64,000 nt of DNA, from sequence record MN508614.1; one strand, written 5' to 3'. A model generated the notes under the pieces. That model worked only from the letters and a program-made list of their open reading frames with translations, was not told the origin of the DNA and searched no databases. Position numbers and translations under genes: made by a program. This DNA is from Escherichia phage ES12. How positions within the stretch are numbered: the stretch's first letter is position 1; each line of letters begins with the position of its first letter. This document shows positions 48,125 to 53,325 of this stretch, piece by piece.

Positions 48125-48132
48125 TATAAATA
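48125..48132 (+). promoter_or_regulatory. T4 late promoter TATAAATA upstream of segE
   Basis: Exact TATAAATA 29 nt upstream of the ATG at 48161. Confidence 0.5.
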
Positions 48133-48160: not shown

Positions 48161-48778
48161 ATGTACCACTTTGTATATGAAACAACAAATCTAATAAATG
48201 GTAAAAAGTATATAGGAAAACACTCTACTGATGACTTGAATGATGGTTACCTTGGTTCCGGTAAGGCAATTCAGCAGGCTATAAAGAAATATGGTGAAAA
48301 CAATTTCTCTAGAACAATACTAAAAGAGTTTAAAACTTCCGAAGAAGCGTACATGTATGAAGAAGAAATTATAACTCCTGAAATAATAAAAAGCAAAAAT
48401 TATTATAATATGAAACCCGGTGGAATTGGTGGAATTGTTATGACTACAGAGGTTATAGCAAAGATGAAAGAATCTTCCGCTAAGAGATTTGAAAACTCAC
48501 CGGGCACGGTATTAGGTACAACTTGTTACACTAATGGAACTAAAAATATTTTTATTAAACCTGGAGAACTTGTTCCAGAAGGATTTGTAAAAGGGATGGT
48601 TCATCCTAATAGAAAGTCCAGAAAAGGATGTAAAGTCAAACCGACTACCACAGGAACTTTTTGGGTCAATAATGGTGCAATAAATAAATTAATACAGCCA
48701 GACGGTATTATTCCCGACGGATTTATTAAAGGTCGTCTCATGAAAAGAGATTCTAAAGGCAAATTTAGTAAGGCATAA
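48161..48778 (+). CDS. segE: GIY-YIG homing endonuclease
   Basis: 205 aa, N-terminal GIY-YIG-like VYETTNLINGKKYIGKH; between inh and uvsW. Confidence 0.88.
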   Translation: MYHFVYETTNLINGKKYIGKHSTDDLNDGYLGSGKAIQQAIKKYGENNFSRTILKEFKTSEEAYMYEEEIITPEIIKSKNYYNMKPGGIGGIVMTTEVIAKMKESSAKRFENSPGTVLGTTCYTNGTKNIFIKPGELVPEGFVKGMVHPNRKSRKGCKVKPTTTGTFWVNNGAINKLIQPDGIIPDGFIKGRLMKRDSKGKFSKA

Positions 48779-48780
48779 TT

Positions 48781-50289
48781 ATGGATATTAAAGTACATTT
48801 TCACGACTTCAGTCATGTACGCATCGATTGTGAAGAGAGCACGTTCCACGAATTAAGAGATTTCTTTTCGTTTGAGGCCGATGGATATAGATTTAACCCT
48901 CGCTTCAGATATGGCAACTGGGATGGACGAATTCGTCTTTTAGATTATAATCGCCTTCTTCCATTCGGTTTAGTCGGGCAAATTAAAAAGTTCTGTGATA
49001 ACTTTGGCTATAAAGCCTGGATTGACCCACAAATTAACGAAAAAGAAGAATTATCAAGAAAAGATTTTGATGAATGGCTTTCTAAATTAGAAATCTATTC
49101 AGGAAATAAAAGAATTGAACCACACTGGTATCAAAAAGATGCAGTGTTCGAAGGATTAGTTAATCGTCGTAGAATTCTTAATCTTCCAACATCCGCTGGT
49201 AAATCTTTAATTCAGGCTCTGCTCGCTCGGTATTATTTGGAAAATTACGAAGGTAAAATTCTTATCATTGTTCCAACAACTGCTCTAACAACTCAGATGG
49301 CTGATGACTTCGTTGACTATCGTTTATTCAGTCATGCAATGATAAAGAAAATTGGTGGCGGAGCATCAAAAGATGATAAATATAAAAATGATGCACCAGT
49401 CGTTGTTGGTACATGGCAAACTGTAGTTAAACAACCAAAAGAATGGTTCTCACAGTTTGGAATGATGATGAATGATGAATGTCATCTTGCTACAGGAAAA
49501 AGTATTTCATCTATCATATCAGGTTTAAATAACTGCATGTTCAAATTTGGTCTATCTGGTTCATTACGTGATGGCAAAGCCAATATCATGCAGTATGTTG
49601 GAATGTTTGGTGAAATATTTAAGCCAGTAACGACTTCTAAGTTAATGGAAGATGGACAAGTAACTGAGCTAAAAATTAATAGTATTTTTCTTCGCTATCC
49701 CGATGAGTTCACTACTAAATTAAAGGGAAAAACTTATCAAGAAGAAATAAAAATTATTACGGGGCTTAGTAAAAGAAATAAATGGATCGCTAAATTAGCT
49801 ATTAAGCTTGCGCAAAAAGATGAAAACGCTTTTGTCATGTTTAAACATGTATCACATGGTAAAGCTATTTTCGATTTAATTAAAAATGAATACGATAAAG
49901 TTTATTACGTATCAGGGGAAGTTGATACCGAAACCCGCAATATAATGAAAACCTTAGCTGAAAATGGTAAAGGAATAATTATAGTAGCTAGTTATGGTGT
50001 ATTTTCTACTGGTATTTCAGTTAAAAATCTGCATCACGTTGTTTTAGCGCACGGTGTTAAATCAAAAATCATTGTATTACAAACAATCGGTCGTGTATTA
50101 CGTAAGCATGGTTCTAAGACAATAGCAACAGTCTGGGACCTCATAGATGATTGTGGTGTTAAGCCAAAATCTGCTAATACGAAAAAGAAATATGTTCATT
50201 TGAACTATCTTTTAAAACACGGCATTGATCGTATTCAGCGCTACGCAGATGAAAAATTTAATTACGTAATGAAAACAGTTAATTTATAA
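48781..50289 (+). CDS. uvsW: UvsW DNA/RNA helicase
   Basis: 502 aa; Walker A LPTSAGKS and DECH box. Confidence 0.95.
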   Translation: MDIKVHFHDFSHVRIDCEESTFHELRDFFSFEADGYRFNPRFRYGNWDGRIRLLDYNRLLPFGLVGQIKKFCDNFGYKAWIDPQINEKEELSRKDFDEWLSKLEIYSGNKRIEPHWYQKDAVFEGLVNRRRILNLPTSAGKSLIQALLARYYLENYEGKILIIVPTTALTTQMADDFVDYRLFSHAMIKKIGGGASKDDKYKNDAPVVVGTWQTVVKQPKEWFSQFGMMMNDECHLATGKSISSIISGLNNCMFKFGLSGSLRDGKANIMQYVGMFGEIFKPVTTSKLMEDGQVTELKINSIFLRYPDEFTTKLKGKTYQEEIKIITGLSKRNKWIAKLAIKLAQKDENAFVMFKHVSHGKAIFDLIKNEYDKVYYVSGEVDTETRNIMKTLAENGKGIIIVASYGVFSTGISVKNLHHVVLAHGVKSKIIVLQTIGRVLRKHGSKTIATVWDLIDDCGVKPKSANTKKKYVHLNYLLKHGIDRIQRYADEKFNYVMKTVNL

Positions 50290-50302
50290 GGGCTTCGGCC
50301 CT

Positions 50303-50545: not shown

Positions 50546-50600
50546 ATTAAAAAAGGCCCAACCAAAAAGGAAGGGCCAAAACTATAGACTAAAGGTCACA

Positions 50601-50768
50601 CTATAGCAAAAGTTGCGTTTCATTTAATTGTTCTTCCGAACTTTCTGAAACTGGTAGTTCTTTAATGTAATTATAGCAAGGCCCAGGATGTACAGGACCT
50701 TTGTCTGTTTCAACAACCAATGCAGAATCGATTGGAGTTTTACAGACAACACAAATCTTATCTGACAT
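50601..50768 (-). CDS. Small Cys-rich protein (CxxC ... C), not in the supplied ORF track
   Basis: Hand translation MSDKICVVCKTPIDSALVVETDKGPVHPGPCYNYIKELPVSESSEEQLNETQLLL; GGAG RBS 6 nt upstream of ATG. Confidence 0.5.
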   Translation of the reverse strand: MSDKICVVCKTPIDSALVVETDKGPVHPGPCYNYIKELPVSESSEEQLNETQLLL

Positions 50769-50796
50769 GATTGTCTCCTCTGAATTATATATCTAT

Positions 50797-51021
50797 TTAT
50801 ACAACTCTCATATGCATATCAATGCCCATATCTTTAGAATAAAAATATTCATCAAGATATCCGGCAAATTTTCCTTTAATATAAAGAACATCTTCACCGC
50901 ACGGGTGGTCGGCCAGGATACGAATATCCTGACGCTTAAGATTATGCTTTTTCATTAAGAATTGAATTTCCGTTTCAAATTCTTCTTCATAATTAAAAGC
51001 ATCATCAATGTTATATCTCAT
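50797..51021 (-). CDS. Hypothetical protein (uvsY.-1 position)
   Basis: 74-aa ORF directly downstream of uvsY. Confidence 0.65.
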   Translation of the reverse strand: MRYNIDDAFNYEEEFETEIQFLMKKHNLKRQDIRILADHPCGEDVLYIKGKFAGYLDEYFYSKDMGIDMHMRVV

Positions 51022-51434
51022 TATTTTCCAGCCTCAAATGCCCGCATGTCTTGAATATGCTTAATAGCAAATCCGCGTGATTTGATAGCATCAAGAGCTC
51101 CGCTACAGAAATCTAATAAAATTCCCCAATATTGTAATGAAGTATCAACCTTTAAAACATCCTTATCAGCTGATAGAACTGTTTTCATTTCTGATTTCTC
51201 GTAACGATCCATACTAAATTCATCACCATCTCCTCGTCCCGAGTAGTAGTCTAATTTAGCTTTAAGAGCAACTTTTTTCTGTGCTTCAATTCTAAGCATT
51301 TCCTTTTTAATACTTGAATGCTTATTAAGCCATTTACTATATAACATCACATTATTAGCTGCTTCATACTGTAATTTAGTCGAATCTATAAACACATCTT
51401 TCTTCAATTCTTCTTGAAGATCTTCTAATCTCAT
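51021..51434 (-). CDS. uvsY: UvsY recombination mediator protein
   Basis: 137 aa, T4 synteny and size. Confidence 0.93.
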   Translation of the reverse strand: MRLEDLQEELKKDVFIDSTKLQYEAANNVMLYSKWLNKHSSIKKEMLRIEAQKKVALKAKLDYYSGRGDGDEFSMDRYEKSEMKTVLSADKDVLKVDTSLQYWGILLDFCSGALDAIKSRGFAIKHIQDMRAFEAGK

Positions 51435-51503: not shown

Positions 51504-51899
51504 TACTCTATTACTGGAAGCCAGTTGTAGTTTTATCTGCTCAATATCATCAGGGTTATCGATGACTGAAAAGCGTATTTCTACTATCAGAGTATAATCA
51601 TCATAAACTGGTATCACATTAACTGCTAATTTATCAATACGTGGCTCATAGTTTCTTACTGCGCTTTCGATATTGCGCTCAACTGTGTCAGCAGTAAGAG
51701 GAGTCATATTTTCAAAAAGCTGGTCTGATAAATCACATCCAAATTCAGGGTCAAACGGTCTTGAACCTTTTCTTGTTGTAATAATTCCCAAAAGACTGTT
51801 TTTAATTGACCTTAATCCAAGCGATCTGGAAACATCTTTGTTCCAATCCATTTTCATTTCTGGGTCAATGTCAGAATAAAGCTTATTAATATTTGCCAT
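51501..51899 (-). CDS. 25: gp25 baseplate wedge protein
   Basis: 132 aa, T4 synteny and size. Confidence 0.95.
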   Translation of the reverse strand: MANINKLYSDIDPEMKMDWNKDVSRSLGLRSIKNSLLGIITTRKGSRPFDPEFGCDLSDQLFENMTPLTADTVERNIESAVRNYEPRIDKLAVNVIPVYDDYTLIVEIRFSVIDNPDDIEQIKLQLASSNRV

Positions 51900-52525
51900 T
51901 ATAGTAACTCAAAGAACTCTTTGAGGCCTCTTATTACATGAGCATGGGTTTTTCCACACTCTGGACACTTAATTGGAACAGCCAAATAAACGGTAGGTTT
52001 TAAAAGCATATCTTTTATAGCTACAATATCTGACTCTGTGATGATAGAATATAAATCTTCTAGTTCCTTTTCATTTAAGTCTTCAACTGGAATGCTTTCC
52101 CCGTTAGCATGAATCGTTTCTATGCATGATACTATCATGTGGGCTATATTTTTATCATCAAAAATTTTAGGGTATTGGAATTTAATTTTAATGTCACCCA
52201 GTGTATACCAGAGGTCTTCTGGTGCATCTATTTGTGTATGTAATAGATTTATATGGGTTGGTATTTCAGTTCCACAGGTGCACTTCCAAGAGTTTTCGTG
52301 ATTAACTTCACCAAGAGAATGCGCCCATAAATGAATCAACAATAGTTCTGATTCTTGGCGATTTAAATCTTTTGCATTTGTGCAGTCTTTGATTAGCTTT
52401 TTAACAATTACTTCTACAGAACCATTATTTTTGGCAGTAATAAGTTCTAGATATTCTTTAAGAGTAAATGCGCGACAGTTGATTATTTTAGAACCAACTC
52501 TCACATCAAATTTGTATTCATACAT
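51899..52525 (-). CDS. 26: gp26 baseplate hub protein
   Basis: 208 aa, T4 synteny and size. Confidence 0.93.
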
Positions 52526-52546: not shown

Positions 52547-52558
52547 TATTTATAAATA
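52547..52558. promoter_or_regulatory. Palindromic pair of overlapping late promoters between divergent genes 26 and 51
   Basis: TATTTATAAATA contains TATAAATA on both strands. Confidence 0.5.
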
Positions 52559-52575: not shown

Positions 52576-53325
52576 ATGGCAAACATTATTCGTTGTAAAT
52601 TACCAGATGGTGTTCATCGTTTTAAACCATTTACGGTAGAAGATTATCGAGATTTTTTGTTAGTTCGAAACGATATAGAGCATCGGTCACCACAAGAACA
52701 AAAAGAAATAATTACTGATTTAATTGATGATTATTTTGGAGACTATCCGAAGACTTGGCAACCATTTATATTTTTGCAGGTATTTGTAGGGTCAATAGGT
52801 AAAACTAAAGTACCGGTCACATTTGTATGTCCAAAATGTAAAAAAGAAAAGACAGTTCCATTTGAAATATACCAAAAAGAATTAAAGGAACCTGTTTTTG
52901 ATGTAGCTAATGTTAAAATTAAATTAAAGTTTCCTTCTGAGTTTTATGAAAATAAAGCAAAGATGATTACTGAAAATATTCATTCTGTCCAAGTAGATGA
53001 AATATGGTATGATTGGAAGGAAATTAGCGAGTCCAGTCAAATAGAACTTGTTGACGCCATCGAGATAGAAACATTAGAAAAAATTCTCGATGCAATGAAT
53101 CCTATTAATTTAACTCTACATATGTCATGCTGTAATAAGTATGTAAAAAAATACACTGATATAGTAGATGTGTTTAAGCTATTAGTTAATCCAGATGAGA
53201 TATTTACTTTTTATCAAATTAATCACACGCTTGTAAAAAGTAATTATAGCTTAAATTCAATAATGAAAATGATTCCTGCTGAGCGCGGATTCGTATTAAA
53301 ACTGATTGAGAAGGATAAACAATAA
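52576..53325 (+). CDS. 51: gp51 baseplate hub assembly protein
   Basis: 249 aa, T4 synteny and size. Confidence 0.93.

Follow-up and report, generated by a model that had tools for sequence, protein, structure and literature searches.

Here, we identify the 55-codon open reading frame at 50601-50768 on the minus strand of the window (the whole 64,000-nucleotide stretch of Escherichia phage ES12 DNA that was analysed) as the T4 gene uvsY.-2, a member of the Pfam family DUF2685, and we regard both this identity and its being a real, expressed gene as virtually certain. Conservation across T4-like phages and published T4 data show uvsY.-2 to be a translated, conserved, late and fitness-relevant gene. 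As to its role, we favour, with some reserve, a late zinc-finger adaptor, modulator or competitor that docks on a partner protein.

uvsY.-2 is not a new or overlooked gene: T4 annotation has carried it for decades, it has a Pfam family to itself, and its name, family, expression and fitness data are all public. Reading its product as a CCHC treble-clef finger followed by a tail with conserved motifs is a modest refinement of a known gene. As biology its value is likewise modest, this being an orphan gene that is abundant late and has a measurable, complementable fitness effect.

Identity of the reading frame

The frame runs from an ATG at 50768-50766 to a TAG stop at 50603-50601 on the minus strand, which in this region reads ...gttgTATAAATAgatatataattcaGAGGAGacaatcATGtcagataag..., and its product is a 55-residue protein, MSDKICVVCKTPIDSALVVETDKGPVHPGPCYNYIKELPVSESSEEQLNETQLLL. 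A sequence-only reading of this DNA had described the frame exactly as we find it in the sequence and the ORF list, as a 55-codon minus-strand ORF with a GGAG Shine-Dalgarno, and was also right about its CxxC pair and third Cys (Cys6-x2-Cys9 and Cys31) and about its neighbours, uvsW.1 on one side and, on the other, the gene downstream of uvsY, which is uvsY.-1. The same reading called the ORF missed, which holds for the supplied ORF track, where a product of 55 aa falls below the 60-aa default (the sole reason for its absence), but not for public annotation: uvsY.-2 is annotated in T4 RefSeq (NC_000866.4, locus T4p185, 114496-114663), in Pfam as DUF2685, and in hundreds of phage records. Its pointer to T4 ORFs of the uvsY.-2 type was well aimed, the frame being uvsY.-2 itself.

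The product matches PF10886 (DUF2685) at 119 bits against a gathering cutoff of 25 (E 9.3e-35), with residues 3-55 covering positions 1-55 of the 55-position model, and phrog_1043 (PHROG 1043) at E 3.9e-31. It is 100% identical in amino acid sequence to T4 uvsY.-2 (NP_049797.1; UniProt Q00778, Y11A_BPT4) and is encoded at the same place, between uvsY.-1 and uvsW(.1). With no difference at the protein level, the window and T4 RefSeq differ in DNA only, by four substitutions over 50546-51021 (the region compared, which holds the uvsY.-2 and uvsY.-1 genes and their flanking spacers) and by 2 extra nt in the window within the promoter-to-Shine-Dalgarno spacer of uvsY.-2. Over a 1.3-kb region the window matches Escherichia phage ES26 at 100% identity and 74 phage records at 99% or more; it comes from a Tequatrovirus all but identical to ES26. 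Searches of NCBIfam and PADLOC with uvsY.-2 returned no match, a literature search found no functional paper on DUF2685, Y11A_BPT4 or Q00778, and the supplements of Sullivan 2010 make no mention of uvsY.-2.

Short frames are common in this DNA (36 ORFs of at least 30 aa in the surrounding 5.5 kb), so that size alone is weak evidence of a gene and a chance ORF in non-coding sequence has to be considered. The Pfam match, the tblastn matches in 1251 phage records and the median dN/dS of 0.18 described below lift uvsY.-2 well above chance, and with detection by mass spectrometry and complementation in trans they leave the chance-ORF explanation with a probability close to nil.

Expression and fitness in T4

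In the time-resolved T4 proteome of Wolfram-Schauerte et al., the LFQ value of Q00778 is zero in all replicates at 0, 1, 3 and 5 min, stands at ~3e7 in 2 of 3 replicates at 8 min (supplement), and then rises to 1.5-2.7e8 at 12 min, 7-8e8 at 20 min and 0.8-1.2e9 at 30 min, the authors classing the gene as “middle RNA, late protein” (PMC9697503). Proteomics, which the sequence-only reading had offered as a check, supports the frame, the T4 protein being detected from 8 min (PMC9697503). The “middle” RNA class agrees with read-through from the uvsY promoter; oriF(uvsY) is marked at the start of uvsY in RefSeq.

A contribution to fitness comes from the CRISPRi-ART screen of Adler et al., in which translation is blocked by dCas13d and uvsY.-2 was scored “Semi-Fit” (median 1.12, three guides at 2.1-2.3), with uvsY, uvsY.-1 and uvsW “Not Fit” in the same screen (PMC11879866). 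Single-guide knock-down of uvsY.-2 gave smaller plaques with near-normal plating (5e9 vs 0.5-1e10), and the small-plaque phenotype was rescued by complementation in trans (PMC11879866).

Genomic context and expression signals

uvsY.-2 lies downstream of the co-oriented minus-strand genes uvsY (51021-51434) and uvsY.-1 (50797-51021), with genes 25, 26 and 51 beyond them, and converges on the plus-strand genes uvsW (48781-50289) and uvsW.1 (50303/50315-50545). Its Shine-Dalgarno sequence, GAGGAG at 50775..50780 on the minus strand, is separated from the ATG by a 6-nt spacer, and a GGAG or AGGAG element occupies the equivalent place in almost all of the related loci listed.

On the same strand at 50794..50801, overlapping the uvsY.-1 stop codon and 25 nt from the uvsY.-2 ATG, stands the octamer TATAAATA, the T4 late-promoter consensus, which occurs 23 times in the window against 10.3 expected. 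Of the 53 related loci, 38 have its ATAAATA core at -50..-15 of uvsY.-2, against an expectation of 0.012 per locus, and 17 have the full octamer; the core is kept regardless of the upstream gene. uvsY.-2 thus shows both marks of a T4 late gene, the octamer upstream and a late build-up of protein that peaks at 20-30 min, and from sequence, conservation and published timing a late promoter is predicted directly upstream of it. A sigma-70-like match at 50811-50784 was disregarded, such matches being fewer than in shuffled sequence, and no MotA box was seen upstream.

The space between uvsY.-2 and the convergent uvsW.1 holds, at 50549..50577 on the minus strand, a hairpin resembling an intrinsic terminator (GGCCC..CC-UUUUU-GG..GGGCC followed by UUUUUU). 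A 61-nt segment here has a folding energy of -16.6 kcal/mol (z -2.98), and the hairpin escaped the consensus terminator scan because of its internal loop. This putative terminator would end a leftward 26-25-uvsY-uvsY.-1-uvsY.-2 unit, and uvsY.-2 is the last gene of this late 26-25-uvsY unit, with a predicted internal late promoter of its own.

Several other features of the neighbourhood deserve record. Between gene 26 (minus strand) and gene 51 (plus strand), two overlapping TATAAATA octamers on opposite strands form a compact divergent pair of late-promoter consensus sequences at 52547-52558. The translations of the two flanking genes show paired Cys motifs by eye, CTCG...CPEC in gp26 (51899-52525, minus strand) and CPKC...CC in gp51 (52576-53325, plus strand), which suggest that these baseplate-hub assembly proteins may carry zinc ribbons. 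On the other side of the locus, a segE-type GIY-YIG homing-endonuclease gene (48161-48778, plus strand) is situated between inh and uvsW and is preceded by TATAAATA at 48125-48132; this gene, segE in T4, is missing or replaced in many related loci.

At the end of uvsW in the window, the TAA stop (50287-50289) is followed by a GGGCTTCGGCCC hairpin with a UUCG tetraloop (50290-50301), a GGAG and the start of uvsW.1. T4 RefSeq NC_000866.4 has 1 nt less at the end of uvsW and hence a fused uvsW of 587 aa, in a record that itself notes sequence discrepancies. Kerr and colleagues reportedly found in 2007 a sequencing error at the uvsW 3' end that brought to light a separate UvsW.1 ORF; on that account the two-ORF state of the window, uvsW plus uvsW.1, is probably the correct one.

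Conservation of uvsY.-2

A tblastn search with uvsY.-2 found homologs in 1251 phage records, of which 495 reach at least 99% identity. The family resolves into ~100 clusters at 90% identity, nearly all of 51-60 aa and all DUF2685, from T4-like phages of Enterobacteria, Acinetobacter, Aeromonas, Vibrio and Pseudomonas; cyanophages appear in none of the homolog lists for uvsY.-2. Selection on the gene is purifying, as judged from sequence comparison: dN/dS has a median of 0.18 (pairwise Nei-Gojobori, 424 pairs) and lies at 0.06-0.35 against the window copy.

Synteny was compared over 53 loci, from a sample of 46 IMG/VR loci and the genomes of Aeromonas phage 31, Krischvirus Phi1, Acinetobacter phage Maestro and Vibrio phage VS1. 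In all 53, as in the window, uvsY.-2 shares its strand with genes 26 and 25, lies downstream of gp25/uvsY and converges on uvsW. The genes in between vary, uvsY.-1 being frequently missing and seg-like endonuclease genes sometimes inserted, so that uvsY.-2 is kept where uvsY.-1 is absent. Acinetobacter phages have uvsY.-2 directly after gp25, with uvsY not at this place, and Aeromonas phage 31 has another gene in the place of uvsY and retains uvsY.-2. Conservation in relatives, raised with the frame by the sequence-only reading, is thus amply borne out by the 1251 records, the unbroken synteny and the low dN/dS. uvsY.-2 is among the few T4 orphan genes kept in all of the major proteobacterial T4-like phage groups examined.

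A predicted zinc finger

Residues 1-37 (50658..50768, minus strand) make up a predicted CCHC zinc finger, with a Cys6-x2-Cys9 knuckle, a beta-hairpin at 19-21/24-26, and His27-x3-Cys31 leading into a helix at 30-37. Two conservation sets, 21 close homologs and 39 representatives of 50%-identity clusters, show Cys6, Cys9, Gly29, Cys31 and Glu42 to be invariant in the family, and Lys10, Gly24 and His27 to be conserved in at least 90%. The residues kept family-wide (CxxCK, G..VHxGxC, the E of PVSES and a C-terminal LxExQLL) are all present in the window protein.

An AlphaFold2 model built on a diverse alignment (pLDDT 79.7) has the CxxC knuckle, strands at 19-21 and 24-26, and a helix at 30-37 with His27 and Cys31 at its start; the three elements of a treble clef (knuckle, hairpin and ligand-bearing helix start) are therefore all found, as a prediction, in the model. 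Very probably, then, residues 1-37 form a finger like a treble clef or half a LIM domain, predicted to hold a single Zn2+ through Cys6, Cys9, His27 and Cys31. The structural neighbours of the modelled fold are all zinc fingers. Foldseek against the PDB gave nothing below E 0.47, with LIM domains as the top matches, and the BFVD structure search returned uvsY.-2 family members only. Among solved structures, a single-sequence search gave only spurious matches (lysostaphin repeats and Mlc), and a family-profile search a marginal match only, to the Vps39 CCHC finger (PDB 6ze9, E 0.0035).

The sequence-only reading had thought of a small zinc-binding regulator. Zinc binding is plausible, given the invariant Cys6, Cys9 and Cys31, the treble-clef-like model and the near-invariant His27, a probable fourth ligand absent from that reading; the role of regulator is unproven, and the acidity of the protein argues against a regulator of the nucleic-acid-binding kind.

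An acidic, probably flexible tail

Residues 38-55 (50604..50657, minus strand) form an acidic tail with two motifs, LPVSES, which contains the invariant Glu42, and the C-terminal LNETQLLL; the C-terminal peptide reads SEEQLNETQLLL. The tail is without secondary structure in the AlphaFold2 model, where the block-mean pLDDT is 57 for residues 41-50 and 70 for residues 51-55. Its terminal pattern, L-x-[ED]-x-[QE]-L-[LI]-[LMIV] and sometimes an additional NG, is kept across the 39 representatives.

The whole protein (6.1 kDa, pI 4.4) has a net charge of -5.4, with -1.4 on the finger alone and -4.2 on the tail, and all 39 representatives of the family have a pI of 4.05-5.46. This uniform acidity makes nucleic-acid binding unlikely and protein-protein contact most likely. 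Outside the finger, conservation is highest in the two short tail motifs, so that the protein most likely acts by docking on another protein.

Proposed role and its alternatives

In light of these properties, how might uvsY.-2 act? Residues 1-37 would fold as a finger around one structural Zn2+, and the flexible acidic tail (residues 38-55) would dock onto a partner through PVSES and LxE[TV][QE]LL[LIM]. The protein would act in the late phase, in late DNA transactions, late transcription or assembly, on a partner expected to be shared by T4-like phages or by their gamma-proteobacterial hosts. A fixed position and kept motifs across very different hosts point to such a conserved partner, either a core phage protein or a universal host protein, and away from a strain-specific defence. 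We hold the parts of this proposal with different strength: for docking by way of the tail, the chances seem to us about evenly balanced, and naming any one partner would be at best an unlikely guess. The model is nonetheless concrete, comprising a CCHC finger of Cys6/Cys9/His27/Cys31 and a docking tail with PVSES and LxETQLL-COOH, and it is open to point-mutant and pull-down work.

One specific form of docking would make the tail a motif for the gp45 sliding clamp, by which uvsY.-2 might either be a competitor of gp33, gp55 or gp43 at clamps loaded on DNA or serve to tether something to such clamps. The family's end, [TVI][QE]L[LI][LMIV], shares with those three proteins a pattern of a hydrophobic, a polar and three hydrophobic residues with acidic residues before it, and the late timing of the protein suits clamp-dependent late transcription. 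However, uvsY.-2 has Thr/Val in place of the first Leu of LDF and Leu in place of its aromatic residue, and the tail end ETQLLL does not match the gp45-binding consensus [ST]L[DE]FL[LFY]; the likeness spans 5 residues only, is possibly generic, and has no support in the literature. A clamp-binding motif in the tail is therefore improbable in our estimate, and we think equally little of the broader idea that the tail is a degenerate clamp-interaction motif or else a docking peptide for another core replication or recombination protein. Were either the clamp or such a core protein the partner, uvsY.-2 would, at late times of infection, adjust the balance at DNA-loaded gp45 clamps between replication, recombination and late transcription. 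An almost universal orphan of proteobacterial T4-like phages would thereby gain a function, and the small plaques of the knock-down an explanation.

The other accounts place uvsY.-2 in different processes. As a small, acidic protein without known function it might be an accessory anti-host or anti-defence factor, inhibiting a host protein or defence system, and it is among the hypothetical Semi-Fit genes that were proposed as possible inroads to defence inhibition (PMC11879866); small zinc-finger inhibitors with tails (YacG, CsfB/Gin) are also among the fold matches. Anti-defence cargo, however, is usually early, variable and located in plastic regions, and uvsY.-2 is atypical on each count, with a late and not an early protein, strong purifying selection and family-wide motifs, and a fixed syntenic place in at least five T4-like groups on Escherichia, Acinetobacter, Aeromonas and Vibrio; PADLOC, too, gave no match. 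We consider this account unlikely. Somewhat less can be said for a helper of baseplate hub or wedge morphogenesis, co-expressed with genes 26, 25 and 51. It would suit a late protein encoded by the last gene in the late 26-25-...-uvsY.-2 unit, with late-promoter consensus sequences at 52547-52558, and a gene that follows gp25 without uvsY in Acinetobacter phages and stays when uvsY is replaced in Aeromonas phage 31. Yet the protein has no similarity to virion or assembly proteins, T4-like gene order mixes functions (uvsY itself is in the unit), and small plaques with near-normal plating are not specific to assembly, and we rate such a helper as quite improbable.

We give very little credence to a regulator that acts on transcription or translation by binding nucleic acid, or to a protein that targets recombination proteins by imitating the C-terminal tail of gp32. 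The charge of -5.4 (-1.4 for the finger), the family pI of 4.05-5.46 and the lack of a basic surface oppose the regulator. When mimicry of gp32 was considered, the likeness of the tails proved to be generic, acidic and Leu-rich: the hydrophobic residues of DLDxLLxxL fall in another register, and the gp32 and uvsY.-2 tails do not co-vary in 20 paired genomes (15 distinct tail pairs). The knock-downs of uvsY and uvsW, moreover, were “Not Fit” where that of uvsY.-2 scored (PMC11879866). The late adaptor, modulator or competitor that docks on a conserved partner protein is thus the reading that we retain.

Stubs and variant forms

Two Logan contigs, SRR13674843_1 (60.8 kb; locus L056, 2900-4630) and SRR26665427_1070 (36 kb; locus L057), carry remnants of this locus in a siphovirus context that is not T4-like (lambda-type GpJ tail tip, Peptidase_M15_3). 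Each has a 3' stub of uvsY, a truncated uvsY.-2 of 30 aa (MTCICAVCKQPIEMALAVKIENHVVHPQNN*), a terminator hairpin and a convergent gene for a UvsW-like helicase. In DNA the stubs match Krischvirus Phi1 at 92% identity over 259 nt; for the helicase the identity is ~70%. By sequence comparison, this looks like a horizontal capture of the uvsW block with dead flanking stubs. Similar uvsY.-2 stubs of 26-30 aa (P0118-P0125) were called on other long contigs.

Longer forms were also seen. In OL964745.1, from the evolved mutant T4 clone T4_7t1 (locus L002, 2318-2668), small indels join the frames of uvsY.-1 and uvsY.-2, which are annotated as one 116-aa “DUF2685 domain-containing protein”. Logan contig SRR24752792_27035 (locus L053, 487-867) has a 126-aa form (P0028, phrog_26998) with an N-terminal extension of 73 aa and a 4-nt overlap with the end of uvsY. 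As a Rosetta-stone fusion the 126-aa form was set aside as uninformative: its N-terminal part is unrelated to uvsY.-1, an internal Met stands just before the finger, and it follows directly after uvsY. The true start of this form is uncertain.

Comparison with known systems

The first finger of LIM domains and the C-terminal finger of Vps39, both of them protein-interaction modules, have the same CCHC ligand set as uvsY.-2 and a similar spacing. LIM ligands are spaced C-x2-C-x16-23-H-x2-C, and those of uvsY.-2 C-x2-C-x17-H-x3-C. Unlike LIM and Vps39, which are eukaryotic families, uvsY.-2 has one finger only and H-x3-C in place of H-x2-C, and the scores are non-significant for homology; the likeness is best seen as convergent or as generic treble-clef geometry. 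The TRASH-like N-terminal zinc finger of eL24/Rlp24 is another fold match, but eL24 is a basic, rRNA-binding protein, in contrast to the acidic uvsY.-2, and with 5-14% identity there is no relationship at the sequence level.

The tail invites comparison with the C-termini of the gp45 binders gp33 (...TNTLDFLL, conserved as TNTL[DE]FLL), gp43 (...ASLDFLFG) and gp55 (...SPSLDFLYEAND, with SLDFLYEAND). Like them, uvsY.-2 has a hydrophobic residue, an acidic or amide residue and three hydrophobic residues after an acidic stretch; unlike them, it has Thr/Val for Leu and Leu for Phe in [ST]L[DE]FL[LFY].

Homology to YacG, the gyrase inhibitor of E. coli (PDB 4tma chain I), was rejected, as hhalign gave a probability of 3.1% with only the CxxC knuckle aligned; YacG is a C4 and uvsY.-2 a CCHC protein, and their tail motifs are unrelated. 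As an organisation, a single finger with a docking tail that modulates a larger machine is nevertheless known from YacG on gyrase and from CsfB/Gin on sigma-G, both of which are among the fold matches of uvsY.-2.
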